64,000 nt of DNA from a virus (IMGVR_UViG_3300050821_005035:11134-75133); one strand, 5' to 3'. Counted from the first letter of the stretch, positions 7,601 through 37,639 are shown. A program made the numbers and translations. The notes: generated from the sequence alone by a model not told the origin.

Positions 7601-7706
7601 CGTACTCGTGACAGTTTAAAAACTGGGTCCTCCCGGTCTCCGGGTGCTTCAGCCCGGGAATCCAGGAGACGATTGTTGCCATCCACGCCTTACCCATTGT
7701 TATCAT
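4680..7706 (-). other. hypothetical ORFs, several with CxxC zinc-binding motifs
   Basis: 4680..4838 (small membrane protein, manual translation), 4930..5265, 5255..5740, 6354..6878, 7314..7706; promoter TTGACA-17-TACTCT at 6348..6376. Confidence 0.55.
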
Positions 7707-8179
7707 CAGCTGTTGATGCGCCTTACCCAGCCGCTGACGAAGACGCTCGTCTCTGGCTTGTTGTTGACCACGTTCATGCAGTGGTTTATTAAAATCGTGC
7801 GGTACGCGGGGAGCAGGTTCGCGTTCTGGTTCACGGCAGACAGCGTGCCGGGGCCGAACTCGCCGTCGGTGACCAGACTGACTTTGTTCACCAGCGTGAT
7901 CTGCAGCATCTTGACAGCGGTCTTGACTCCGAAGAGCACGCCCATATCGAAAAGTTTTTCAGCTATCGCCTGGTCGACGATCTGGGTGTAGAACTGGTTC
8001 CAGTAATGCGCAGCGTAATAAGCAATGGCGTGTTCCTGGGTAACGGTTTTCATATCGACTCCAGGCATGTCGGCTTGGGTGATGCCGTATTTCGTAGCCC
8101 CTCCTGGGTCGTTCGGGCTGTCAACGAATCCACCCTCGTGAATTAAGGTTTTCTGAACAGCCTGAGTAAAGTCTGCCAT
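7706..8179 (-). CDS. endolysin, glycoside hydrolase family 108
   Basis: HEGGFVDSPNDPGGATKYGIT catalytic motif, DG.FGPGTL and C-terminal F..GW..R; start re-assigned to MADFT behind a GAGGAG RBS. Confidence 0.9.
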   Translation of the reverse strand: MADFTQAVQKTLIHEGGFVDSPNDPGGATKYGITQADMPGVDMKTVTQEHAIAYYAAHYWNQFYTQIVDQAIAEKLFDMGVLFGVKTAVKMLQITLVNKVSLVTDGEFGPGTLSAVNQNANLLPAYRTILINHCMNVVNNKPETSVFVSGWVRRINS

Positions 8180-8940
8180 AGTGATCTCCTCTCGATTTTG
8201 AATTCGGAAGTCTGACGGCCCTTCCAGTTGGTGCCCATCCCGGCGTCTTCCGACTCCAAGTGGTAGCATACAATTTCTGGAACAAATCCGCGCCTGCCGC
8301 GAGGCCACTGCTTAGCGAACAGCATATCAGTGCGGCCCGCGTCGCTGTGCGCCTTCGGGTAACGGTAAACGCTGCTGACCCAAGGGTGCCACAGCTGGAA
8401 GAATCCTATCGGTATCCACCCGGTATCGTGCGCCATGACTCGGGTCGCGATATCGAACTCGCAGTTGTTCAAGTGGATGTAAGCCTCGTCCTCGTGTTGA
8501 AGCTTGGGGGAGTGGAGGAAGTTGCCCCACGCTCGGGCGCCCTTGACGTTGAAACGGTCGGAGCCGTAAATCATACCCTTATCGAGGCAGGCGCGCTCTA
8601 AAAGTCTTCGGGTTTGGGGAGGGAGCCAGATGTCTGCGTCCAAGTGTAGGACCCAGCCGTCCAGGTCGAGGTGAGAGAGGCCGAGGTCGATAGCGTCGCC
8701 CTTGAACATCCCGGGGTCGCTCAGCTGGGGGCATATCACGCACTGGACGTGGTAGAACTCGCACAGCTTCCGGGTCTTACGATCTTCCTTGCTGGTGACC
8801 ACCACCAGCTTATCGAACAGTTGTTTGTTGTTGGGGAGGGTGTAAGCGAGGAAGTCAGAATATTCCCGGCACACGATCACGCACTCTAGCTTGAAGTTCT
8901 TTTCTCTCTTCTCTTCTCCGCACTTTTCCATATGATACAT
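8143..8940 (-). CDS. GT-A fold glycosyltransferase (GT2-like)
   Basis: FKGDAIDLGL...WVLHLDADI (DxD motif); own promoter TTGACA-17-TACGGT at 8966..8994. Confidence 0.7.
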   Translation of the reverse strand: MYHMEKCGEEKREKNFKLECVIVCREYSDFLAYTLPNNKQLFDKLVVVTSKEDRKTRKLCEFYHVQCVICPQLSDPGMFKGDAIDLGLSHLDLDGWVLHLDADIWLPPQTRRLLERACLDKGMIYGSDRFNVKGARAWGNFLHSPKLQHEDEAYIHLNNCEFDIATRVMAHDTGWIPIGFFQLWHPWVSSVYRYPKAHSDAGRTDMLFAKQWPRGRRGFVPEIVCYHLESEDAGMGTNWKGRQTSEFKIERRSLWQTLLRLFRKP

Positions 8941-8990
8941 CCGGCCCCCTATTAGCGACTCCCTTACCGTATCACACTTTCGGAAATTTG

Positions 8991-9935
8991 TCAACCTATT
9001 TCTAGCTCCGCGTCGATCATCATCCGGACCAGTTCGTTGAATCGCACTTTTGGCTCCCAACCCAGTACCCGGCGAGCCTTGCTAGAGTCGCCGATCAGAA
9101 CGTCTACCTCGGTTGGGCGGTACAGCCTCTCGTCGGTCTCAACGTGCTTCCGCCAATCTAGGTTGAGATATCCGAATGCCTCGTCAAGAAACTCTTTTAC
9201 GGAGTGCGCTTCCCCTGTTGCGATCACGTAGTCGTCCGGGAACGGCTGCTGGAGCATCAGGTGCATAGCCTCCACGTAATCTCCTGCGAATCCCCAATCT
9301 CGCATGGCGTCTAGATTGCCGAGGAACAACTTATCTTGCAAGCCTCGGGAGATGCGAACTGCGGCTTTCGTTATCTTTCTCGTAACGAAAGTTTCGCCGC
9401 GCCGGGGTGACTCGTGGTTGAAGAGGATGCCGTTGCACGCGAAGGTACCGTAAGCCTCCCGATGATTTACTGCAGACCAGTACGCGAACAGCTTGGCGAT
9501 AGCGTACGGTGAGCGGGGGTGGAACGGGGTGCTCTCGTTAGTGGCCGTCGTATAGACCCCGCCATACAGTTCCGAACTGCTGGCTTGATAAAATTTTATG
9601 CCCTTTTCTTTAATGGCTTCCAGTATGTTAAGGGCCGCGATCCCTGTGGCCTCTGCGGTGACGACCGGGATGTCGAAGCTGGTGCGAACCTGGCTTTGCG
9701 CGGCCAGGTGATAAACCTCGTCCGGCCCGATCATGTCGATGGTGTTCGTGGTGGAACTGGCGTCGGTCACGTCGCCGTAATGCAAGTGCAGGTCTCTGAA
9801 TATGTGGTCAATCCGGCTGGTGTTGATCGAGGAGGAGCGGCGGATAATCCCGTGGACCTCGTAACCTTTGGACAACAAGAGTTCTGCGAGGTATGAGCCG
9901 TCCTGCCCGTTTATGCCCGTTATCAAAGCCTTCAT
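8991..9935 (-). CDS. gmd: GDP-mannose 4,6-dehydratase
   Basis: [66 protein letters not shown]. Confidence 0.97.
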
Positions 9936-10738
9936 GACGCCCCCTCCAAGTTCAGCTTCTCAATCAGCCATTTCGTCTTCAATGTGTGGTATTCAGGTGA
10001 GCGGTGGTTCCAGTTCGACGCGCGCAAGTAGTGAATCCCGATAGGCTTGTCGTTTATGGAAATATTCTCGTACTCGGACGGATGAAAGTCGGTCGTCGGG
10101 TCGTCTGGAACGAAGTACTGCTGGATAAGAGTCGGATTCAGTTCCGGGTGAGATTGCAAGTAGAAGAAGCTCTGCCCTCCGATGTCTGTGACTATCCCGT
10201 TCACGAAGCTGCCCCACCAGTTGATTTGCTCCGGGTTCGGAAGTCTCGACATGTCGGCCAGCACCAGCGCGTCGTGCATGTGAATCCCGCCCAGGTTGGG
10301 GCGAGACTGCGGTATAAAGCACAGCGGCGTCGTTACCAGGTAGTCAGTCAGCTTGATAGGCTGGGTGAAGAACATGTCCGGGTGGAGGAGGCAGATGGCG
10401 CCCTTCTCTTTCATAATGTGGAACTCCCACGTATAAAAGCACCCGTAACAACCAGCGCAGTTGGGATTGCTCCAAGAGCCTTGGCGGTTGAATACCGTGC
10501 ACGACTTCTCTACAGCGTTGCACTTGTCTTCCAAGGACTGGACCCGCTCGACGTCGAATACCGCGATTCCAAGCCTCCTGCATGTCTCGTCGATCTTGAT
10601 ACGTTCCGCTGGACGGTCAAACTTGGCGTTGTTTAAGATCGTAAACGTGAAGTCCTCTTGGATATACTTCCAGAAAGACTTCAGCTGCAGTTCGATTAGG
10701 TCCGACCGGTTGCTCGTGAACGCGAATATGTTAATCAT
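9932..10738 (-). CDS. putative GT-A glycosyltransferase
   Basis: Position in the glycan island; degenerate DxD region LLHPDMFF. Confidence 0.45.
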
Positions 10739-11667
10739 CTGCTCTCCTGTGCTAGCTTGGCGCCGTCCAATAGGTTGTCGATTTTGTTTAAGTAGGTGTG
10801 GTTTTTGGCGACCTCATCCATCAGCGCGTGGAGAGTTTCCGGTGTGGTTCTAGATAGTTGTTCTCTCGCGTCATAAAACAGCGCGCGTGTATCCCAGTTA
10901 TAAATCAGCTTTCCACGGAAAATCTCGTTAGCCCAAGGGTTGTTGGTCGCGCACATCTGGCCGTAAGACAGCGCCTTGAAGACCCGACACGGCATGTACC
11001 CGACCTTGATTTGATACGCTAGGGAGATCGCTGGCGCGATATATGAGGCCTGCACCAGACGTACGTTCTCTTCCACAGATACGGGGGAGCCGCCGAATCC
11101 GCCGACCAGCTTAAAGTTGATTCCACTTTCTTTGCAGGCTGCAGCGAACGGAGCTAGCTCTGGTACCGAAGTGCCCACGTAGTTGACGTCCCGGCTCCAG
11201 TCTCGAAAGACCTTGCTCGGCTTGTTCGCCATAATCTCGTGAGGCAGGAGGTCTGTGGCCCAGCGGAAGACTACAGCGTCGTAAGAGTCCCAAGGCTGGG
11301 GGAAGAAGAACGCGTCCTTGCTCAGTTCCACCGCGTTCGAGGGTAGCTCCATGCTGTTCACGTAAAGGCCGTAGTTGATAGTTAAAAAGCCCTTCGTGTA
11401 CTCTTTAGCCCGGGCTTCCATGTTGTGGACCGCGTAAATGCAGTCTGTCCGTAGAGGCATCCCCTTTACAGCGTACTCCATGCTGATGAAGAAGGTGTTG
11501 GAGAAATCTATCTTAGAGATGTCGTCGTGCGCGTCCAGCCAAAGGACCTGGCGCTCCGGGAATCTGAACTTAAGCGCGCGGTAAAAGGCCTCCAGTATGT
11601 GACGGAAGGAGTTGTACGCTCCGCTTTTAAATCCCCAAACGCAGAAGTTGCAGTTCTCCAGCTTCAT
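10735..11667 (-). CDS. putative GT-B glycosyltransferase (CgeB-like C-terminus)
   Basis: NYVGT, PCRVFKALSYG and HTYLNKI motifs. Confidence 0.6.
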   Translation of the reverse strand: MKLENCNFCVWGFKSGAYNSFRHILEAFYRALKFRFPERQVLWLDAHDDISKIDFSNTFFISMEYAVKGMPLRTDCIYAVHNMEARAKEYTKGFLTINYGLYVNSMELPSNAVELSKDAFFFPQPWDSYDAVVFRWATDLLPHEIMANKPSKVFRDWSRDVNYVGTSVPELAPFAAACKESGINFKLVGGFGGSPVSVEENVRLVQASYIAPAISLAYQIKVGYMPCRVFKALSYGQMCATNNPWANEIFRGKLIYNWDTRALFYDAREQLSRTTPETLHALMDEVAKNHTYLNKIDNLLDGAKLAQESR

Positions 11668-12845
11668 TTGTATCCCAGGAAATATCCGTGAATAAGCTCG
11701 CCTACGTATCGAATGTCTTCAGGAGTTAGGTTCTGATGAATCCCGATCATGAACCCGCTGCGGGCCAGGTTTTGAGAGACCGGGTACTGCTCCATCATCC
11801 GGGGGAAAAGTTTCCTGTATGCGGGACTTTCCAAAAGTGGAAACATGTGGCGGGTTTCCACGCCGTGCTCTTCCAGATACATGAGCAGCTTCTCCCTGTC
11901 TACATACGGCTTGCAGATAATCGGGAACATCATCCACGAGTGAGTCGAGTCGTAAGGGACGTAAGGAAGTTGAATCTCCGAGATGCCGGAAAGAAGATTT
12001 ATCAGCTGGCTCGCGTTCGCCTGCCGTTTTGCTGCGTTTTGAGAGAAGTGTCCCAGTTCCGCTAGCGCCAGCGCGGCCTCTATTTCCGTTGCCCTGTAAG
12101 AATATCCGACCCGGTCGAACTTGAATCGGCGCTCGACTATGTTTTGAAGACCAGAACCTGTCAGCCCGTTGGCCGCGTCGATGCTCGAATACACGCTGTC
12201 GCGCCCGTGAGCCATTAAGGAGCGGCACAGTTCGGCCAGCTTACCATCGTTGGTTGTAACCAGACCGCCTACGCCGCCGACTATGTGGTGGTTGACGTAT
12301 GTGCTGAAGCATCCCATGTCCCCGAAGCTACCCACTGACTTTCCGTCAACTGTAGACCCAACCGATTCGCAGCTGTCCTCGATGACCTGCAGGCTGTGAC
12401 TCTCGGCGATGTACATAATCTCAGGCATCTCTGCGGGTAGTCCGAAGAGGTGAACCGGGATAATTGCGCGAGTTTTCCGTGTGATCTTCTCTCCTATTTT
12501 GCCTGAAGCCATATTGAAGGTTCTAGGATTGACGTCGACAAAGACCGGGACCATGTTGTTTTGAAGGACGATGTTGGATGTTGCGATGAAGGTCGTTGCG
12601 GGGACCAGAACCTCGTCGCCGTCTTTGTATCCGTGAACTTCTTTCAACGCTGTTAGCGCGACTTGGAGCGCGCTCGTTCCGCTGTTCATGAAGATGCCAT
12701 GCTTGCAGCCGTGCATCGCTGCGAACTTCTCCTCGAACTCTCGCGTGTACTTTCCGTATGAAAGCCTGTTCGTGTCGAGGCAGTCGTTCACATACCTCTT
12801 GCCTTGATCTGAGATAGACAGCGTTCCCAGCGTAATTTTTCTCAT
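11664..12845 (-). CDS. DegT/DnrJ-fold PLP/PMP enzyme, ColD-like sugar 3-dehydratase
   Basis: NSGTSAL, IEDSCES; FSTYVNHHIVGGVGG has His where aminotransferases have the Schiff-base Lys; no Cys cluster after HGRD as in RfbH/E1. Confidence 0.75.
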   Translation of the reverse strand: MRKITLGTLSISDQGKRYVNDCLDTNRLSYGKYTREFEEKFAAMHGCKHGIFMNSGTSALQVALTALKEVHGYKDGDEVLVPATTFIATSNIVLQNNMVPVFVDVNPRTFNMASGKIGEKITRKTRAIIPVHLFGLPAEMPEIMYIAESHSLQVIEDSCESVGSTVDGKSVGSFGDMGCFSTYVNHHIVGGVGGLVTTNDGKLAELCRSLMAHGRDSVYSSIDAANGLTGSGLQNIVERRFKFDRVGYSYRATEIEAALALAELGHFSQNAAKRQANASQLINLLSGISEIQLPYVPYDSTHSWMMFPIICKPYVDREKLLMYLEEHGVETRHMFPLLESPAYRKLFPRMMEQYPVSQNLARSGFMIGIHQNLTPEDIRYVGELIHGYFLGYK

Positions 12846-13411
12846 CGTCCCCCCGTGAACATGCTGTTCGGTCCTAACCACGATTCTCTGGCGGTTCTGG
12901 CGAACTTGTCACGGTCAGATAGAATCGGGTTATCCGTCAAAGGCCAGTCGATGCCGATGTCTGGGTCATTCCAAAGGACCGCCCGGTCTTCGCCGACGTA
13001 CTCGTCGCAGTTATATAGAACGATTGTGTTGGGTTCCAAGGCGCAGTATCCGCGCGCAAATCCTGCTGGCGCCCAGACTTGATAATTATTACGCTCGTGA
13101 GCGATGACGTTGTGGTACCTCAAAAATGTGGGAGAATTCATGCGGATATCGACGGCCACCAGGTAAGCCGCGCCGTTGATGACCTGCATCAGCTTCCCCA
13201 TCGGCGGGTCTAGCTGGTAGTGAAGGCCCCGGATGACTCCGCGCTCCGAGCGGGAGACCATCTGTCGAAGGACGCGGGACGGGAAACAAAACAGTGGGTC
13301 GTCTTGTAGCCGGGTCACAGTTAACGAGCCTCGGTTATCTGAGAAGGTTGTTGGTTGAATGACCTTGACTTCTCCGTTGAAGTGCTCGTCTACAATTTCA
13401 AAGAGTCTCAT
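12842..13411 (-). CDS. rmlC: NDP-4-keto-6-deoxyhexose 3,5-epimerase (RmlC family)
   Basis: DNRG, GVIRGLHYQ, VAVDIR..SPTF, WAPAGFARGY, WNDPDIGIDWP, LSDRD. Confidence 0.9.
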   Translation of the reverse strand: MRLFEIVDEHFNGEVKVIQPTTFSDNRGSLTVTRLQDDPLFCFPSRVLRQMVSRSERGVIRGLHYQLDPPMGKLMQVINGAAYLVAVDIRMNSPTFLRYHNVIAHERNNYQVWAPAGFARGYCALEPNTIVLYNCDEYVGEDRAVLWNDPDIGIDWPLTDNPILSDRDKFARTARESWLGPNSMFTGGR

Positions 13412-14397
13412 AGTCCACCTTTATGCCACTCGATTGTGTTTCTTAATCCCTCTTCCAGTCCCACAAAATGTGCTTTCTTAAACTCGTTCATAACCCGCCA
13501 GACGTCCATCACGACGTTGCCTGACGCGCCTGCCATCTGGTTTGAGCCGGTAAAGAGTCGGGAGCCGGATAGCCGGGCGATCTCGCAGGCGACGTTCTCG
13601 ATGGTGTAGCTGTTTGGAGAGCCGACATTGTACACGGCCTTCGTGCCGTGGAGGAGAATATTCCACATGATCTCGACCGCGTCTCTAATGTAGCAGAAGG
13701 TACGTAGCTCGTCCCCGGAAAATTTCATCGCAACCACCCCGTCTTTCAAAGACTGGTCGATGAACGTGCTGACCGCTCTGGAATCGCCTCGTCGAGCGCC
13801 AGGCCCGTATACGAGAGACAGCCTTGCAGACTGCGCGTCGACGACTCCGGTTTCACGGAACGCGTTTACGACAGCCTCTCCGCAGCGTTTGCCTTCGATG
13901 TACCCGGCCCTGGGGTGATACGGGTTAGTGGTTCCGATCTGATACTCGTCCGCGTTACTCAGCCCGCTGTAAACCTCGGAGGAGCTAGCGAAGAGAAACT
14001 TTCCACCAGGCTTCAAATATTGTAGCAGCTGGCGGGTCCACTCCACGTTGATGCGAATGGTCTCCGCTGGATTCTTTGTGAACCGGGAAGGCTGCGCGTA
14101 CCCGGCGAGATGAATCACCGCGTCTAGGTCGGTGAAGACATTCTGTTCTGATAACAGCTGGATATCATCCAGGCAGGCGATCTCCTTGGTGTGGTCCTCT
14201 GGCTCCGAGTGGCAGTAGCCGTACGCCTTAATCTTCATACCGTCGTTCTTCAAGAGACCCAGGGTCGCTAGGAAGTGCGTCCCGATCTGGCCTGTGGCGC
14301 CGGTGACCAGGACAGACTTTCCCTCCAGCCAGCTGAAGTCCACGGCCTCGATGACCTTGTGCGCGTCCGAGTAGATGATGCCAAGCCTATTTTTCAC
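13408..14397 (-). CDS. NAD-dependent sugar epimerase/reductase (extended SDR)
   Basis: VLVTGATGQIG, HLAG, FASSSEVY, YIEGK; GTG start behind GGAG. Confidence 0.9.
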   Translation of the reverse strand: MKNRLGIIYSDAHKVIEAVDFSWLEGKSVLVTGATGQIGTHFLATLGLLKNDGMKIKAYGYCHSEPEDHTKEIACLDDIQLLSEQNVFTDLDAVIHLAGYAQPSRFTKNPAETIRINVEWTRQLLQYLKPGGKFLFASSSEVYSGLSNADEYQIGTTNPYHPRAGYIEGKRCGEAVVNAFRETGVVDAQSARLSLVYGPGARRGDSRAVSTFIDQSLKDGVVAMKFSGDELRTFCYIRDAVEIMWNILLHGTKAVYNVGSPNSYTIENVACEIARLSGSRLFTGSNQMAGASGNVVMDVWRVMNEFKKAHFVGLEEGLRNTIEWHKGGL

Positions 14398-14926
14398 TAT
14401 AGTAGTCTCCGAATTCCACGCATATAGTAGCACGTCCGTCCGTTCTTGTCAAGGCCTTTTCGTAGGCCGGGAAGATGTCCTCTGGCTCGTCTAGCCGGAT
14501 GACCTCGACCGTCGTCAGCATTTGTCTCAGCGGTTCTGTGAAGTCGCCGACATGCTGCGCTTGAGGATGCAAAGGCCTTTCACTCCCTATTCCCACTCGA
14601 ACAATTACATTAGGGCAATAACCATTCTGGCTCATTTGAGAAAGTTTGTCAAGGTGTAAAATCAGCTGATTCATGGCGAGCAACAAAAAGTTGTACCGGG
14701 GATATATTGTCACCGGGATGAAGCCAGCGAGGGCCAGACCGATACTCGCTCCTAGCTGTAATTCTTCCGCAACGGGAAATTCTGTGAGCTTTTCTTTAGG
14801 AACATTGACGAGCGTGCCGCTCATACCGGTTCCAGGATAAGCGACCGCTTGCCCTAAGAAAATCGTGCGAGGGTCGGCTCCCAGATAATCCATAGCTCTG
14901 GTTAGTTCTTGTTGGTATTTTCCCAT
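14387..14926 (-). CDS. ThDP-dependent enzyme, pyrimidine-binding subunit (E1-beta/transketolase-like)
   Basis: IFLGQAV, EFPVAEELQLGASIGLALAG, AMNQL, QH motif; lacks the C-terminal domain. Confidence 0.85.
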   Translation of the reverse strand: MGKYQQELTRAMDYLGADPRTIFLGQAVAYPGTGMSGTLVNVPKEKLTEFPVAEELQLGASIGLALAGFIPVTIYPRYNFLLLAMNQLILHLDKLSQMSQNGYCPNVIVRVGIGSERPLHPQAQHVGDFTEPLRQMLTTVEVIRLDEPEDIFPAYEKALTRTDGRATICVEFGDYYSEK

Positions 14927-15555
14927 CAGAAGGTCACTCTTTTCCCTGCCCCAGCGTGGGGCCACTTCTCGGCCTTGTATCTAAAATGCGTAACGTGATC
15001 TGAGAACTTACTTTTGTGTTCTGCGTCTGTTGTAAACTCGTCGCCGAATTCGTTCTTCAATCCCCACGCCAGTCGAGTATCCGTGCAGACAGAAAGGTTG
15101 TTGTCCTCGACGTGGAAGTATACTGGTAGATCAAAATTTTCTACGTACTTAATGCTTTCGTAAGCTATCCCTGTTTCGGCTGTCATGTCACCTAGAAAAA
15201 TATGGACGCGCTCATTACCACATCTGCGCTGGATAGCCATGCCAAGGCCTACACCGATGGGTAAAACCCCACCAATGATTGCACTAGATAAAATGCGGTA
15301 CTCAGGAAAGCTGAGAGCAATTGAGTATCCAGCCATAATCTTGGTTTTCAACTCTGCGGGAGGCACTCCTTTTAAAAGGCAGGGGTAATGGCTTCTCCAC
15401 GAACAAAGCACCCAATCTTGGGCGCGTATGCCTTTGAAGATTTCGATCAGTTCTTTCTCCCCGCCAGAGTAAAGATGAGTAGGACTTCTTATCAGACCAG
15501 CGTTAAACTCAGCGGCGATGTCATCTTCGAATGCTATTAGTTCTTCCGGTGTCAT
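14926..15555 (-). CDS. ThDP-dependent enzyme, diphosphate-binding subunit (E1-alpha-like)
   Basis: HLYSGGE, WRSHY, SAIIGG, GDMTAETG...EDNN thiamine-diphosphate motif. Confidence 0.85.
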   Translation of the reverse strand: MTPEELIAFEDDIAAEFNAGLIRSPTHLYSGGEKELIEIFKGIRAQDWVLCSWRSHYPCLLKGVPPAELKTKIMAGYSIALSFPEYRILSSAIIGGVLPIGVGLGMAIQRRCGNERVHIFLGDMTAETGIAYESIKYVENFDLPVYFHVEDNNLSVCTDTRLAWGLKNEFGDEFTTDAEHKSKFSDHVTHFRYKAEKWPHAGAGKRVTF

Positions 15556-15556
15556 G

Positions 15557-16354
15557 TTATCTCCAGAGGTCCGGGTGCAGCAGGTGAATCAACCGCACCA
15601 GTCCGCCGTGTACTTTCGTGGCTTGTGTTATCATAGAAACTTTTTTGACTCGGTAGTGGAACAAAGGCTCGTTTACCACCCCGACGGTCCAACCGCGCTT
15701 CAAGATGTCGAGCCACATATTCCAGTCCTCGTATCCGAGAACTTTCGTGCTGCCCGCGACGTCGACGAAGATAGTCTCGTATCCGGGGGTTTGTTCGAAG
15801 GCCGTGCGGCGAATCAAAGAGCATACAGGAAGGTCATTGCTGACCATCTCGCTCGCGAGAGACAGTCCCTTCGGCGGGATGCGGTTGTGCAACAGTCCCT
15901 CGTACTGCATGTCCGTCGACACGATGCCGATGCCTTGGTTAACCATCAAGGGAACTGTGCGCTCCAAGTAGTTGGCCTCGATCCAGTCGTCGGAATCGAG
16001 GGGGAGGATAAACTCTCCGTCTCCAGCTTTTATGCCCTCGTTCCTGGACGTTGAGAGGCCTCGGTTCTCCCGGTCAATAATTTTCAGATTCCCGTTGAAG
16101 TTCCAGCACCCGGGGACTGGTTCCATCATCTCAGCTTCCGCGTAACGCTTGACCATCAACTCTCTCATCTCTCCGTTCCAACGGTCTACTATCTCTCGCA
16201 CGACCACCATCGAGTGGTCCGTGGAGCCGTCGTTGACTAGGGTTACATCGAAGTCCGGGTACGTCTGGGCCAACGCAGAATTCAAGCACTGCTCGATAAA
16301 TTCCTCTTGGTTGAAAAGAGGAATCACGATGTTGACTTTGCCGACCTTAATCAT
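15557..16354 (-). CDS. glycosyltransferase family 2
   Basis: IVIPLFNQE, VNDGSTD, NRGLSTSRN, LDSDD, YEDW. Confidence 0.92.
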   Translation of the reverse strand: MIKVGKVNIVIPLFNQEEFIEQCLNSALAQTYPDFDVTLVNDGSTDHSMVVVREIVDRWNGEMRELMVKRYAEAEMMEPVPGCWNFNGNLKIIDRENRGLSTSRNEGIKAGDGEFILPLDSDDWIEANYLERTVPLMVNQGIGIVSTDMQYEGLLHNRIPPKGLSLASEMVSNDLPVCSLIRRTAFEQTPGYETIFVDVAGSTKVLGYEDWNMWLDILKRGWTVGVVNEPLFHYRVKKVSMITQATKVHGGLVRLIHLLHPDLWR

Positions 16355-17064
16355 AGCCTGGTCCACCTTTCGGGTACGATATCCGAGTAATCTACATCTG
16401 GATTTGAGAACCACTTCTTCGGCGCCACAACCAACTTCTGGGGGCCGAGCCACGCTCCCCACCACCCATAGCTGCTGTTGGCGATCACTTGGTACTCGCA
16501 GCTGGAGATAAGCGTTAAGTCCTCGTACTTGTTTCCGCCCTCGATGACCTTGAAGTCGGAGGGAAAGTTTTCCTTACACCATTGGCGGTCATCGGAGAAT
16601 ACCATCACAGGAACAAGTGCTCCCACTTCGCGCCGGATATGGGCGACCCCTTCTCGGTAATAGTCGAGAGTCGGCAGGCCGTGAAAGTGCTCCAGTCCGA
16701 CGTAGTCTTGGCGACGGACGTGAACTGCGATAAAGGGAAGCAGAGGCCTGTTATTGAGAGGGAAGGCCAGACGAACCATCTGAGTGAAATACTTTTCTGA
16801 CTGCCAGTAACCAATCATCGTGCAGTCTTCTGTTGGTTCCAGGTAGCTGGGGTTGTACCTCATGCCGTCTTCATAGACTTCTCTGCCACTCGATTTACCG
16901 TCGGCCTTTATTCCGAAGTATCCGAGAGAGTACTCGCGATGGGTGCCCTCGATCAAATAGGACCTGTCCAGCTGGACCTCATAGCCTCTGTCTTGCAGCG
17001 TCATAGCGAAGGCACACTGAAACATCTGGTTGCATAACCCGCCAAGTAGTCGTACCGTAATCAT
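16351..17064 (-). CDS. glycosyltransferase family 11 (alpha-1,2-fucosyl/colitosyltransferase-like)
   Basis: GGLCNQMFQ, GYWQSEKYF, AVHVRRQDY, FSDD, IANSSYGWWGAWL. Confidence 0.92.
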   Translation of the reverse strand: MITVRLLGGLCNQMFQCAFAMTLQDRGYEVQLDRSYLIEGTHREYSLGYFGIKADGKSSGREVYEDGMRYNPSYLEPTEDCTMIGYWQSEKYFTQMVRLAFPLNNRPLLPFIAVHVRRQDYVGLEHFHGLPTLDYYREGVAHIRREVGALVPVMVFSDDRQWCKENFPSDFKVIEGGNKYEDLTLISSCEYQVIANSSYGWWGAWLGPQKLVVAPKKWFSNPDVDYSDIVPERWTRL

Positions 17065-17756
17065 CGCGCGCCCTTATTCAGCGCCAGAATCTTTGGCGTG
17101 ACGTTCAGTCCCGCTGCCTTCCACTTGTCTGTGTAATACGCGGACGCGCTTTCCGGGTAGCAGTAAGAGGGATCGAGAACCGTACAAGGCGGGTGCTCGT
17201 GAAGGTAGCGATTCAAGTGCGATTCGTCATGCCATACTGCGAGCACTCCGCAAGATTCATCCACACTGATGTGATAAGCTAGATCGGTAGCCATTCTCAA
17301 AAATGTTGAGGTTGCGCCGCCGTTGAATCCCCCACAAAAGTATTTATTTGCAGAACCTGGAGCAATAGAGGCCACTGAGTGTATTCTCCGTTCCGGAGTC
17401 CCGCACGAGCCAACGTATCCTGGGTGCAGGGTAGCGGTTATGCCGTTGGAGAAGACTTCCTCCCCGACCGGAGCGACAAATCGCATATCAGAGTCTATCC
17501 AAAAAACTTGGTCGTACCCTTTCAATAGCCACTCCTGATTCAGAATTGTGTGATACCTGTATAGCGTTTCCTTGGGGAAACCGAGAGCTTTCTTGGTTAG
17601 TACAAATTTCGCATCGAAGGTGCTGGCCGCTTCCAGAGTATCCGTCCACACAATCGCATCGTGTTCGACAAAAAACTCTTGAGCAGATTCCAAAAGTGGT
17701 GGTACGAATGCATGGTACTTTTCTCCTGTGGCGATCACGAGCAGAGCGGTCTTCAC
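17061..17756 (-). CDS. glycosyltransferase family 6 (ABO-like alpha-1,3-Gal/GalNAc transferase)
   Basis: IATGEKY, DSDM, LHPGY, YFCGGFNGG, AVWHDESHLNRY, LDPSYCYPE. Confidence 0.9.
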   Translation of the reverse strand: MKTALLVIATGEKYHAFVPPLLESAQEFFVEHDAIVWTDTLEAASTFDAKFVLTKKALGFPKETLYRYHTILNQEWLLKGYDQVFWIDSDMRFVAPVGEEVFSNGITATLHPGYVGSCGTPERRIHSVASIAPGSANKYFCGGFNGGATSTFLRMATDLAYHISVDESCGVLAVWHDESHLNRYLHEHPPCTVLDPSYCYPESASAYYTDKWKAAGLNVTPKILALNKGAR

Positions 17757-18442
17757 GAATTCACCGTCCGGTACACGAGGTCCGCTGTTTCCATCCAGCG
17801 GTACTCAAGCTTATACCCCGACTTGTACTGCGACGACGGGAAGTGCGACGAGTAAGAGTTAGCAGGCAGGTCGAGCGCGATCATGTCGCCTCTTGCTAGT
17901 TCCTTGCCGAGCACCTGGCCCACCCATAGGTCTTCGGCCCACCCGTGAGGGAACGTGTCCGCGATCACGCACATCGCGTCTCTAGAAAGGAAGTAGCCAA
18001 AACCGCCGCTGGCCCAGGGATAGCACTCCGGGATGTGAGTAACAATGCCACGGCGATCAATCGCGTCGTAAGGGAAGGTCTCGCCTATCGGCTTGCTGAT
18101 CTTGCCCGTGTAGTCGTAACGCTGGTAGCCGCAGGTCAGCAGCTGGTTCACCTTCACGTACGTGTCGGTGTCCGCTAAAAACAGATGATCTACGTTCTTC
18201 CCAAAGGCCCACTGACATATCGCTCGTGTCTTTGATGGCAGAGAATTGTAGTCATCTTCTGTATCGACTACGACCTCATCGCTTTTATAAACACGACTAG
18301 TCCTTCCATCTCTTTCTGCTCCCACGAAAAATTTTAGATGCGCTTTGCCTCTCAGTTCCTGCCCCCACGTTTTTCTAATCACGTCGTGGTACCCGTTATC
18401 TAAGTCGGCCTTGCAGCTTTTAATTGCTATAATTAGGCTCAT
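17753..18442 (-). CDS. glycosyltransferase family 31 (beta-1,3-galactosyltransferase-like)
   Basis: IRKTW, FFVG, DDYNSLPSKT, DTDTYV, YPWASGGFGYFLS, EDLWVG. Confidence 0.85.
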   Translation of the reverse strand: MSLIIAIKSCKADLDNGYHDVIRKTWGQELRGKAHLKFFVGAERDGRTSRVYKSDEVVVDTEDDYNSLPSKTRAICQWAFGKNVDHLFLADTDTYVKVNQLLTCGYQRYDYTGKISKPIGETFPYDAIDRRGIVTHIPECYPWASGGFGYFLSRDAMCVIADTFPHGWAEDLWVGQVLGKELARGDMIALDLPANSYSSHFPSSQYKSGYKLEYRWMETADLVYRTVNS

Positions 18443-18939
18443 TTTATCTCCGGTTTGAAAGACGTTCCACAATTTGGGCAGCATACTTTACGTACTCGAT
18501 TACCCGCTTGTTCTTTTGATGTTGCCCATCGAACGTTTCCTGGTTCGTAATTACCATCATTATCAATTCTATCGACAGAGTGTTTTAAACTAGGTCGAGG
18601 TCCAATATCCTGAATAAACTCGCGGAAATCTGTGAATAAAAATTTTATTCCACGGCCTCCGTAGTTCATCCAAGCCTTGTGCTTCGGATTCGTACACAGC
18701 AGCTTTGCAGACGCAAAAATTCTGTGCTCTCTTGTTCCGTAAACTCCGTGCGTTATTTTGTAGCAGGTATGGCACGCTTTTGTATCCCCGCTATTTAAAG
18801 CCGCCGTTCTAACTTTGGCAGTACGTCCACATATACAAAAACACAGCCACACGGTCGCTCTTTGCTGCCTTCCTGCAGGCCATGCAACCGTTAGTTTTCC
18901 AAAAATCATTCCTGATAAATCTTCGAAATCCGACCTCAT
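18439..18939 (-). CDS. HNH homing endonuclease
   Basis: FGKLTV, WLCFCICG, YGGRGI, SVDRIDNDGNYEPGNVRWAT; AT-richer than its flanks. Confidence 0.88.
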   Translation of the reverse strand: MRSDFEDLSGMIFGKLTVAWPAGRQQRATVWLCFCICGRTAKVRTAALNSGDTKACHTCYKITHGVYGTREHRIFASAKLLCTNPKHKAWMNYGGRGIKFLFTDFREFIQDIGPRPSLKHSVDRIDNDGNYEPGNVRWATSKEQAGNRVRKVCCPNCGTSFKPEIK

Positions 18940-19703
18940 AACTTAACCTCTTCGTCGAAGCCAAAATATTTCTTAATTCCCCGCTTCTTCATCATCAGCG
19001 CGTGCCCGGTCGTGAGGGCACGTTGTCGGAACGCTTTGTATCTGGGGTCCTGCTTCGAGGCATCATATTCCATCTGATTTATATTTGCTTCCTGAAGGAA
19101 CGCGACTACGATTTTTGCGGCCTTCAAATCAAGAAAGAAATCCACGTGTTCCCCGCCAATTTTAACTATACTTTCATCCCACGGTACGGCTCGAAGAATA
19201 CTGGTGCGCGCTAGAAAATAATTGGCCGCGATGTCGACCTTCCAAAGTTTGAACGGCAGAAGACGAAAAGGCAAATCCCCTAATGGGCGGCGATGTTCTT
19301 TAATATACTCGCCTGGTACGTATTCAAGGGTTCCTTCATAACATCTATCATTGACTCTGCCAGCGACTACGTCGATTTCGTATCCCATGTTTACTTCTGA
19401 TGAGCTTAATGCCTTTTCCATCTTGATAATCCCTTCTCGCGCTTCGTCTGTTGAGAAGTCAAAATCATCTGAGCCAATTAGCGTGTACCGCGTTTGAACT
19501 TGCGCGACGCCCGCGTTCCGCTTTGCGGTGAGACCTGAGTCGTAGGGCAGATAAATCTCGTTCGCCGTTTGAGGAATCACTCCGTCGTCCGATACGACTA
19601 TGACATCGCACTCCGGCAGGTTCTCCCGGATGCCAGCGAGGCAGTCCCTTAGGTAGCCTCGACGGTGGAATGTCGGGATGACGATTGTTATGTCACCTAG
19701 CAT
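18936..19703 (-). CDS. GT-A glycosyltransferase resembling the GT12 (B4GALNT) catalytic domain
   Basis: ITIVIPTFHR, GLTAKRNAGVAQVQTRY, DDFDF, NYFLART, EHVDFFLD. Confidence 0.7.
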   Translation of the reverse strand: MLGDITIVIPTFHRRGYLRDCLAGIRENLPECDVIVVSDDGVIPQTANEIYLPYDSGLTAKRNAGVAQVQTRYTLIGSDDFDFSTDEAREGIIKMEKALSSSEVNMGYEIDVVAGRVNDRCYEGTLEYVPGEYIKEHRRPLGDLPFRLLPFKLWKVDIAANYFLARTSILRAVPWDESIVKIGGEHVDFFLDLKAAKIVVAFLQEANINQMEYDASKQDPRYKAFRQRALTTGHALMMKKRGIKKYFGFDEEVKL

Positions 19704-36251: not shown

Positions 36252-36863
36252 TCATTTCTGTAACCTGCCCTTTGCCCATGTTTTAGCTGCATGAAGATGA
36301 CTTGCGTTCTCGCCGTTCTCTTTCAACTGCTTGTATCCCACATCTACCATTTCTACTGCCAACATTCTTAGCTGCTCAAAATCATCAACAGGCTCGCTCC
36401 TGTTCTTCCGTTTCTCTGTATGTGGCTGAGATTTTAGAAGACCAGATGAACTAATTTCGCCTCCCGCTTTGGTGACGTCTTCGACGTATTTTGCTGCTGT
36501 ATCCTCTGGTACCCGTGACAGCTTTTGCCAATACTGGGCTGTCCTTTCAGACGTATCGGTCTCTTTAAGGGCTTTAGAATAAGCACTTTCTACAGGCGCA
36601 GCCGTTGCGGGAGTAGATTTTTTCTTGGTAGGCTCTCCGCCCTTTGACTTTTCTAGCTGACCAAGTAGTTCTCCTGCCCGCCGAGCGGCTAAGAGAGCTA
36701 TCTCGGCTGCGTAATTCTGAGACTCTCGACCTAGATGAGCAGCCTTAGCATAAACTTTTGCCGCTTCTGCTACGTCCTTGATCTTGAGGACCTCAGACAA
36801 AGTTCTAGATTCTGATAAGGCTAGACGCGCTCTATCAAGTTTTGCTAGTGCGAATTCGCTCAT
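36252..36863 (-). CDS. hypothetical helical/HTH protein
   Basis: ATGA-coupled to the Mom-like gene; N-terminus resembles the helical domain often fused to phage methyltransferases. Confidence 0.5.
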   Translation of the reverse strand: MSEFALAKLDRARLALSESRTLSEVLKIKDVAEAAKVYAKAAHLGRESQNYAAEIALLAARRAGELLGQLEKSKGGEPTKKKSTPATAAPVESAYSKALKETDTSERTAQYWQKLSRVPEDTAAKYVEDVTKAGGEISSSGLLKSQPHTEKRKNRSEPVDDFEQLRMLAVEMVDVGYKQLKENGENASHLHAAKTWAKGRLQK

Positions 36864-37639
36864 GCTGCCTTCTTGGGGTAAGACCGAATGCCCCAATGTA
36901 GGATAGATTTGTCCTGGCTATCTGCAAACCAAACGTACCTGTGTTTTATGCTGCGAGAAACTCGAAATACCCTATGCTCTTTTCCAGAGCTATCTGTTAA
37001 AACGTCCTTCGAAGCCCACTCGCGTTTGTTTGTTTTCTTAGAAGGCTCCCCGCACTTGGGACAGTTTCTAAGCAGCGGGATATTCCCGTCTTCTACATAA
37101 GGTGAAACAAATCCGCCGTGCTCCCCACACTTGTAAATAAATCCGCCTCGTAGATACTGAGGAACGCTTCTGTAGTCGACAAAACCCTCGACGGCGATAT
37201 CTATGAACGGCGTAGATGACCCTGTATAAATCCAATTTGTAGCTTGATAAACATATCCGACATGTCCCTGCTTACCGTCTGCATAACTGACCAGAATTGC
37301 AGAGGGATTCTTCTTTCGGAGTTCCTTCAAACACCAGGCTATGAATCTGCTCTCGCTGTTTCTTGGCAGGCTGTCATCGAGCCATAGCCTGTTTAATTCA
37401 TAAACATCGTGTGTCCTAGCCGCTGGATTCTTCATCTGGAGTTTATTTTCTCCAACCAGTCCGCACGAGGTAGACCATGACGCGGGCTTTCCTATCGTTA
37501 AAACACCCTTTGTTTCTTCGCCAATCTTTATACCCCACGCATACGAGATTGGGCATTTTCTGTGAAGATAGTGTTTCTCTATCACTAACTCGACTGCTTC
37601 TCTCTTCTCTATTTGAACAAAATTAGGATTGGATGTCAA
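36860..37639 (-). CDS. mom: Mom-family (GNAT fold) DNA adenine modification enzyme
   Basis: HYLHR, ELNRLWL, PRNSESRFI, LVSYAD..QGHVGYVYQATNWIYTG, K.RY; Cys/His insertion. Confidence 0.8.
   Translation of the reverse strand: MTSNPNFVQIEKREAVELVIEKHYLHRKCPISYAWGIKIGEETKGVLTIGKPASWSTSCGLVGENKLQMKNPAARTHDVYELNRLWLDDSLPRNSESRFIAWCLKELRKKNPSAILVSYADGKQGHVGYVYQATNWIYTGSSTPFIDIAVEGFVDYRSVPQYLRGGFIYKCGEHGGFVSPYVEDGNIPLLRNCPKCGEPSKKTNKREWASKDVLTDSSGKEHRVFRVSRSIKHRYVWFADSQDKSILHWGIRSYPKKAA

Follow-up and report, generated by a model that had tools for sequence, protein, structure and literature searches.

The window analysed here is the whole 64,000-nucleotide stretch IMGVR_UViG_3300050821_005035:11134-75133, that is, 64 kb of a 75,133-base virus record from IMG/VR. 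Its genes at 8991-15555 are considered as a putative pathway from GDP-mannose to a branched 3,6-dideoxy GDP-sugar. The window contains genes for the large terminase, portal, DNA-transfer protein, two-piece family-A DNA polymerase, primase, helicase and GH108 endolysin. The presence of terminase, portal, replication genes and endolysin identifies it as the genome of a tailed phage. The terminase shares no more than 27% identity with that of any deposited phage, and when the region is compared at the nucleotide level to cultured and deposited phages, only short matches at the Gmd level appear; hence no host can be assigned. The phage DNA is present in soil metagenomes (the listed sequencing runs are all soil metagenome DNA, none of them RNA).

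The sugar genes form a run between the endolysin gene (7706-8308) and the replication genes, with overlapping stops and starts of neighbours. In the order of transcription the run comprises:

18936-19703, minus strand: glycosyltransferase of family 2 (GT2), first in the transcription order
18439-18939, minus strand: HNH endonuclease (phrog_374, 143 bits)
17753-18484, minus strand: glycosyltransferase of family GT31
17061-17756, minus strand: glycosyltransferase of family GT6
16351-17064, minus strand: glycosyltransferase of family GT11 (PF01531, 71.4 bits)
15557-16465, minus strand: another glycosyltransferase of family GT2 (PF00535, 87.9 bits)
14926-15555, minus strand: E1-alpha-like subunit of a thiamine diphosphate (ThDP) enzyme, 209 amino acids (aa) (PF00676, 44 bits)
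14387-14965, minus strand: E1-beta-like ThDP subunit, 192 aa from a GTG start or 179 aa (PF02779, 30 bits)
13408-14433, minus strand: extended short-chain dehydrogenase/reductase (SDR) of the UDP-xylose synthase (UXS) lineage, 341 aa
12842-13411, minus strand: RmlC-like cupin, 189 aa (PF00908, 143 bits)
11664-12881, minus strand: DegT-fold enzyme (PF01041, 329 bits)
10735-11667, minus strand: open reading frame (ORF) with a probable GT-B fold, 310 aa, no Pfam match
9932-10738, minus strand: ORF with a probable GT-A fold, 268 aa, no Pfam match
8991-9935, minus strand: Gmd, 314 aa (TIGR01472), last gene of the module

The sequence-only reading of this region had placed every element that it named correctly, on the minus strand and with overlapping stops and starts, but its inventory omitted the two glycosyltransferase-like ORFs at 9932-10738 and 10735-11667.

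The Gmd protein scores 479.4 bits against TIGR01472 (478.6 bits in the genome search), exceeding the curated equivalog cut-off of 415 and thus bearing out the initial assignment, and 429.7 bits against PF16363. Its translation carries ASSSELYG and YAIAK, which we take to be the catalytic Ser/Thr-x-Glu and YxxxK residues by correspondence to E. coli Gmd.

The DegT-fold enzyme likely starts at Met13 (position 12845), in an ATGA overlap with the stop of the RmlC-like gene. The residue aligned to the catalytic Schiff-base Lys of GDP-perosamine synthase (..FSFFGNKIITTGEGG) is His (..FSTYVNHHIVGGVGG), and His occupies the same position in the DegT orthologs of two other phages, L004 and L007. In this fold, His in place of the catalytic Lys is the mark of all characterised sugar 3-dehydratases, the His-type enzymes being ColD, E1/DdhC and SpnQ. 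These three 3-dehydratases have been reviewed (PMC8987622). The alignment of 58 sequences of the neighbouring DegT family features a single conserved Cys column and no four-Cys motif. No flavin reductase-type gene that could serve as the E3 partner was found among the scanned ORFs, nor any PF07992 domain in the entire record. The dehydratase of the Fe-S-containing E1 type was considered and rejected, as there is no conserved cysteine cluster. Both the alignment to perosamine synthase and the cysteine check thus agree with the earlier description of a DegT fold with His for the catalytic Lys and without Fe-S cysteines, and the enzyme is a predicted ColD-type 3-dehydratase of GDP-4-keto-6-deoxymannose, dependent on pyridoxamine phosphate (PMP).

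The ranking of solved relatives by bit score is different: the GDP-perosamine synthases (3dr7/3bn1) lead with 194.6 bits, followed by E1 with 181 and ColD with 150. The best NCBIfam match, RfbH, has 242.7 bits and is under its cut-off. The lead of the perosamine synthases would suit a DegT enzyme acting as an aminotransferase, so that the product would be a 4-amino-4,6-dideoxy sugar, perosamine or a relative, with an acyl group supplied or modified by the ThDP pair. However, the catalytic Lys is replaced by His in the window, L004 and L007 alike, the scanned ORFs include no N-acyl- or N-acetyltransferase gene, and the record lacks the lipoyl-E2 acceptor that E1-type ThDP enzymes require for delivering acyl groups. 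We regard an amino sugar as highly improbable.

The two ThDP subunits, alpha and beta, resemble parts of the E1 component of 2-oxoacid dehydrogenases. Alpha aligns to the pyrophosphate-binding (PP) domain of human E1-alpha, with WRSH facing YRAH and GDM...EDNN facing GDG...NN. The alpha family keeps WRSH and G-D/E-M...E-D-N, and its C-terminal PHAGAGxRVxF is invariant. Beta consists of the pyrimidine-binding (PYR) domain alone; it matches E1-beta of 1um9 and 1ik6 and contains no Transketolase_C domain. It starts either at GTG (192 aa) or, more likely, at Met14 (position 14926; 179 aa), overlapping the alpha stop, the family median being 179 aa. Among 80 family sequences, at least 95% retain Glu67, which activates the cofactor, and His138 of the E1-beta 'QH' motif. 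Compared to the full E1, the C-terminal third of E1-alpha and the whole C-terminal domain of E1-beta are missing. It is the latter domain that docks E2 in dehydrogenase complexes. Neither E2 (PF00198), E3 (PF07992) and lipoyl (PF00364) domains nor a radical SAM protein were found in the whole 75,133-base record; this search covers the phage, and the host could in principle supply partners. The candidate role of pyruvate or acetoin dehydrogenase E1 was rejected, given the missing C-terminal domain of beta, the lack of E2, E3 and lipoyl genes, and the sugar genes as neighbours. Hence the initial suggestion that the E1-like genes are probably not pyruvate dehydrogenase is retained, as is the description of a minimal two-subunit ThDP enzyme (209 and about 179 aa, PF00676 and PF02779).

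In two cyanophages, S-SM2 (L002:11983-13191, SSM2_198) and P-TIM68 (L003:12049-13194), a single protein of about 400 aa, encoded inside sugar clusters, comprises both alpha and beta. It is annotated as 'transketolase central region-containing protein' and belongs to phrog_34187 of unknown function. The natural fusion indicates that alpha and beta work together as one enzyme. Judging by the retained residues, this enzyme is catalytically intact, and it is not part of a 2-oxoacid dehydrogenase.

The alpha family is large: 6392 homologs of approximately 190-225 aa were found in the metagenome protein collection, and relatives are present in 223 IMG/VR contigs and 149 bacterial species genomes, mainly from the Verrucomicrobiota, Planctomycetota, Burkholderiales (Piscinibacter, Rubrivivax, Ideonella), Nitrospirota and Bacteroidota. 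Gene neighbourhoods were counted in a sample of 160 alpha-bearing loci, 80 viral and 80 bacterial. Almost everywhere alpha is followed by beta. A His-type DegT gene is situated near alpha in 130 loci (60 viral and 70 bacterial) at the median distance of 1.7 kb, and most of the loci lacking it are truncated. The catalytic position is occupied by His in 54 out of 57 DegT proteins from the viral loci and in 73 out of 75 bacterial hits; the Lys type is rare, seen in two or three of the 57 viral proteins and in two of the bacterial hits, with one such gene in the bacterial loci. Since His-type enzymes are 3-dehydratases and such a gene accompanies alpha in 130 of the 160 loci, the ThDP pair is genetically tied to the enzyme making 4-keto-3-deoxy sugars.

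The commoner cassette consists of an SDR, an HddC/ManC-like nucleotidyltransferase, an HddA-like GHMP kinase, alpha, beta, a His-type DegT and a B12-binding radical SAM protein of about 500 aa. It is present in 53 of the 80 bacterial and approximately 70 of the 80 viral loci (e.g. L084:4780-16397 and L036:8467-9987). The radical SAM step possibly methylates the branch. In L084, a metagenome-assembled genome (MAG) from the Verrucomicrobiae, the cassette adjoins genes for flagellin, an L-2-hydroxyglutarate-oxidase-like FAD enzyme and a phosphoenolpyruvate-synthase-like PRK05849 protein; this setting hints at flagellin glycosylation.

The window features a rarer cassette, composed of Gmd, alpha, beta, the UXS-lineage SDR and the His-type DegT, with neither kinase nor radical SAM genes. 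The same type is observed in the phages L004, L007, L071 and L074, in a Desulfatiglandales MAG (L141) and in a Bacteroidota MAG (L157). L004 is a near-identical phage with the same gene order, most module proteins being 82-95% identical to those of the window. L007 is a divergent phage with identity of 52-64% and again the same order, including the upstream GT2 and GT11 genes; it also has GT6, GT31 and GT11. In the quick alpha tree the window is grouped with L004 and L005 (support 99), and the cassettes with the UXS-like SDR are scattered, with weak support, among those with radical SAM.

Two side observations concern these relatives. Within the otherwise close pair of the window and L004, the RmlC-like proteins are only 49% identical and the SDRs 70% identical (window 12842-14433, L004:11123-12669). 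The divergence of the former looks like an allele replacement of the epimerase, which could change the stereochemistry of the sugar. Further, L082 (1275-2444 and 9164-10295) and L083 (2112-3281 and 10001-11132) contain two different alpha/beta pairs each, with alphas 44% and 48% identical to that of the window and with separate DegT and SDR neighbours for each pair. Such an arrangement points to two branched sugars being made by a single phage.

In L157 the cassette lies in an O-antigen-type polysaccharide cluster of the ABC-transporter (Wzm/Wzt) type. This cluster encodes Gmd (546 bits), an Fcl/ColC-like SDR (410 bits, below the cut-off of 500) and a NUDIX protein of the GDP-mannose hydrolase type. 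Here the colitose route seems to have been extended by two steps, those of alpha/beta and the UXS-like SDR. Such a pattern is expected of a 'branch, then reduce' module, exemplified by YerE/YerF or Pau11/12 with Pau7 (PMC5399914, PMC4753412).

The RmlC-like protein scores 151.7 bits against TIGR01221, just below the cut-off of 155.75, and is above the cut-off of PF00908. The PDB search identifies RmlC 3ryk (124 bits); the His in RGLHYQ and the Lys in GKL both align with it. The protein is a predicted C-5 epimerase of the 4-keto-3,6-dideoxy intermediate.

The SDR family profile, built from six members, matches human UDP-xylose synthase hUXS1 end to end with 155.7 bits, the next match having 122 bits. 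SSSEVY and YIEGK, that is, the SSE triad and YxxxK, are invariant in all six members. When the profile is aligned to hUXS1, each of the six has V or L opposite the Arg of the QKRKPD motif. We take this Arg (R361 by our count) to be equivalent to ArnA R619, based on the common RKP motif. Glucuronate decarboxylases are recognised by exactly this strictly conserved residue, R619 in ArnA and the aligned Arg in CalS9, AviE2 and EvdS6 (PMC10338323). The lack of the marker Arg makes it more likely that the SDR is an NAD(P)H ketoreductase. It is the sole reductase candidate in the 75-kb record: there are only two PF01370 proteins, Gmd and the UXS-lineage SDR, and no third SDR of the GDP-fucose synthase type. 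This agrees with the early listing of an SDR with no GDP-fucose synthase nearby; the RmlC epimerase listed with it is seen here as an RmlC-like protein. The SDR gene directly follows beta in L004, L007, L074, L137, L141 and L157, as it always does in the UXS-type cassette.

The kinship to hUXS1 leads to an alternative with two separate sugars, in which the SDR would convert UDP-glucuronate of the host to UDP-4-keto-xylose by oxidative decarboxylation, for C-4 acetylation by alpha/beta, and Gmd, the ColD-like and the RmlC-like enzymes would feed a different GDP-sugar. The SDR family is indeed homologous to hUXS1 over the full length and has its catalytic motifs, the gene invariably adjoins alpha/beta, and the colitose genes of L157 form a complete set without alpha, beta and the UXS-like SDR. 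Moreover, a UXS-type enzyme, EvdS6, has been proposed to provide UDP-4-keto-xylose for a pyruvate dehydrogenase-like pair, EvdU5/EvdS3, in the everninomicin pathway (the eurekanate logic; PMC10338323). However, the decarboxylase Arg is V or L in every family member, the GDP branch of the phage would stop at a keto sugar for want of a reductase, and alpha/beta is linked to 3-dehydratases even in loci devoid of the UXS-like SDR. Hence this variant seems quite improbable.

When the two unnamed ORFs are set aside as transferases (see below), six genes are left for sugar making, and these can be arranged in a chain. At step 1, Gmd would convert host GDP-mannose to GDP-4-keto-6-deoxymannose, as the strong family assignment implies. 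At step 2, the His-type DegT enzyme, using PMP and glutamate, would remove the 3-hydroxyl to yield GDP-4-keto-3,6-dideoxymannose, in line with the active-site signature. At step 3, the RmlC-like cupin would epimerise C-5 beside the keto group; since epimerisation requires this group, the step is placed before branching. At step 4, alpha/beta would decarboxylate a 2-oxoacid, presumably pyruvate by analogy, and add the acyl-anion equivalent to the C-4 carbonyl, producing a 4-C-acetyl tertiary alcohol; gene neighbourhood and precedent point to this reaction. At step 5, the UXS-lineage SDR, by its position and as the only reductase, would reduce the side-chain ketone to 4-C-(1-hydroxyethyl), similar to YerF. 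The product would be GDP-linked and probably an L-series relative of yersiniose. Its transfer to an acceptor would fall to the glycosyltransferases encoded nearby, namely GT11, GT2, the two ORFs of GT-A and GT-B fold, and others.

We are fairly confident that the product is some 3,6-dideoxy GDP-sugar. For the complete chain from GDP-mannose to a 3,6-dideoxy GDP-sugar with a two-carbon branch our preference is a slight one. The GDP-linked yersiniose- or colitose-like 3,6-dideoxy donor proposed at the outset fits all the tests, the support being genomic rather than biochemical.

The strongest competitor of the branched sugar is an unbranched one, GDP-colitose or its C-4/C-5 epimer. In this scheme the RmlC-like protein and the SDR, the latter as a C-4 ketoreductase, replace the bifunctional ColC, and alpha/beta acts elsewhere, on another keto sugar or a non-sugar compound. 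Four of the six genes suffice for a colitose-type route, a GT11 gene is adjacent, and the lack of a ColC/Fcl-type SDR in the phage leaves a gap that these two proteins would fill, the second half-reaction of UXS-lineage enzymes being the reduction of a C-4 keto group (PMC10338323). On the other hand, it leaves without a role a coupled pair that has intact catalytic residues and, in 130 of 160 loci, goes together with a His-type 3-dehydratase. Nor does it account for the SDR gene being always directly after beta in the UXS-type cassette. Finally, L157 has a ColC/Fcl-like SDR besides the UXS-like one, and thus the latter is not simply a C-4 reductase there. We consider the unbranched sugar unlikely.

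Several points nevertheless weigh against the branched product. The identity of the donor 2-oxoacid as pyruvate is assumed by analogy. The case for the minimal alpha/beta family is purely genomic. The RmlC-like protein and one SDR could stand in for ColC and finish plain colitose, leaving alpha/beta unexplained, and in L157, which has the Fcl/ColC-like SDR too, the colitose route is complete without alpha/beta. The fused cyanophage form, which is more distant, is found in clusters of the heptose type with no His-type DegT within 12 kb, so that the substrate of the alpha/beta family is not uniform. Overall, GDP-perosamine synthase (194 bits) is a nearer relative of the DegT-fold enzyme than ColD is (150 bits), and some substrates can be transaminated by ColD-type enzymes. 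The stereochemistry of the product is not derivable from sequence.

The two ORFs between the DegT-fold enzyme and Gmd were folded using alignments of 38 (10735-11667) and 30 (9932-10738) homologs. The AlphaFold2 model of the former has pLDDT 96.6, and its Foldseek matches are SenB, OtsA, FUT9 and AviGT4 (probability about 1.0, TM-score about 0.5); some homologs carry PF13524, and the Protein Atlas lead is Glyco_trans_1_2. The model of the latter has pLDDT 92.5 and matches xyloside xylosyltransferase, the UGGT catalytic domain, LARGE1 and ABO GTA/GTB (probability 1.00, TM-score about 0.4-0.48); in the Protein Atlas it yields viral clusters only. By these models both are probably further glycosyltransferases, of the GT-B and GT-A folds respectively, and not tailoring enzymes.

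The upstream GT2 and GT11 genes, which have the same direction as the module, are candidate users of the sugar donor. Fucosyl- and colitosyl-transferases are members of the GT11 family. The scanned ORFs of the window include no Wzx, Wzy or ABC-transporter genes, and the acceptor may be a virion protein, a host lipid or other. Downstream of Gmd, the ORF at 8143-9060 (minus strand) has no Pfam, NCBIfam or PHROG match and is 86% conserved in L004. At its listed start the ORF runs into Gmd, and at its end into the long reading of the endolysin gene, the true limits being shorter. It may be another glycosyltransferase, GT-A-like by eye (VIVC...DFL..., HLDADIW). The HNH gene between GT2 and GT31 has no counterpart at that place in L004 (tblastn) and is probably a mobile insertion. 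A Mom-family protein is encoded at 36860-37639 (minus strand; PF25680, 135 bits) in an AT-richer stretch, unrelated to the sugar module.

Two-carbon branches are documented to be added by only two types of enzyme (PMC4425429). We tentatively suggest, with the balance still leaning against it, that the minimal alpha/beta enzyme is a third widespread class of ThDP enzymes for sugar C-branching, beside YerE and AviB1/B2, acting on the products of ColD/E1-type dehydratases; that the phage product is an undescribed GDP-linked L-series 4-C-(1-hydroxyethyl)-3,6-dideoxyhexose; and that about nine glycosyltransferases of the phage incorporate this sugar in a glycan on the virion or the host surface. 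If so, the third branching type would be a compact ThDP enzyme (about 400 aa) that now goes under the labels 'pyruvate dehydrogenase E1' or 'unknown function', with a family of thousands in soil, freshwater and sea phages and in the Verrucomicrobiota, Planctomycetota, Burkholderiales and Nitrospirota, and a systematic mis-annotation would be corrected. Such enzymes would be small biocatalysts with which tertiary alcohols could be created on sugars. Yersiniose and other branched 3,6-dideoxy sugars are rare and antigenic, and phages carrying complete routes to exotic sugars would have a bearing on virion glycosylation, receptor masking and immune recognition. S-SM2 and P-TIM68 are cultured isolates in which the function of the family could be tested.

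Among known systems, precedents for branching are YerE with YerF, AviB1/B2, Pau11/12 with Pau7, and EvdU5/EvdS3 (PMC4753412, PMC4425429, PMC5399914, PMC10338323). A search of open-access papers yielded none on a phage-encoded branched dideoxy sugar or on the minimal ThDP pair. The cyanophage fused protein has the same two domains as the phage pair, with 36-40% identity, and is likewise encoded in phage sugar-nucleotide clusters with GT11. However, its neighbours are a Zn-alcohol dehydrogenase, a phosphoheptose isomerase, a kinase and nucleotidyltransferases, and a His-type DegT is lacking within 12 kb.

The actinomycete pairs AviB1/AviB2, Pau11/Pau12 and EvdU5/EvdS3 are, similarly to the phage pair, two-subunit E1-like enzymes from sugar clusters without E2 and E3. 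They have been proposed to attach an acetyl branch, derived from pyruvate, to C-4 of a 4-keto sugar, and a ketoreductase (Pau7) would act next (PMC4425429, PMC4753412, PMC10338323). Pau11 and Pau12, characterised homologs of AviB1/B2, are full-length, 325 and 345 aa (PMC4425429), whereas the phage subunits are shortened, 209 and approximately 179-192 aa, and alpha has a PHAGAGxRVxF tail of its own. Hence the likeness to AviB1/B2 noted at first holds for the mechanism but not for family membership, the subunit lengths setting the two apart. The actinomycete pairs serve TDP- and UDP-sugars of antibiotics, whereas the minimal family occurs in phages and several bacterial groups.

GDP-L-colitose is made by Gmd, ColD and ColC in E. 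coli O55 and Y. pseudotuberculosis O:6, O:7 and O:10. Common to it and the phage route are Gmd and a Fe-S-free 3-dehydratase of the His type, although the phage DegT is only distantly related to ColD (150 bits). ColC is absent from the phage and its place is taken by the RmlC-like cupin and the UXS-lineage SDR. Moreover, colitose synthesis has no role for a ThDP pair, and the phage has one.

Yersiniose A of Yersinia pseudotuberculosis, made by DdhA-D (with E1/DdhC), YerE and YerF, follows the same logic, with a 3-dehydratase preceding ThDP-dependent branching. The order in this route is E1 (DdhC), then YerE (PMC4753412). However, yersiniose is based on CDP-glucose, whereas the phage pathway starts from GDP-mannose. 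The yersiniose E1 needs a Fe-S cluster and the E3 reductase, whereas the phage dehydratase is of the ColD type without Fe-S cysteines. YerE is a single-chain flavoprotein similar to acetolactate synthase (ALS), whereas the phage enzyme comprises two E1-like chains, PP and PYR. The domains of the YerE-type pyruvate oxidase/ALS enzymes (TPP_enzyme_N/M/C) are not seen in it, Pfam giving E1_dh and Transket_pyr only, on two chains. In addition, the phage cassette has the RmlC-like epimerase and is phage-encoded. Thus, the phage route has the logic of yersiniose synthesis with front-end enzymes of the colitose type and a ThDP enzyme of the E1 rather than the ALS type.

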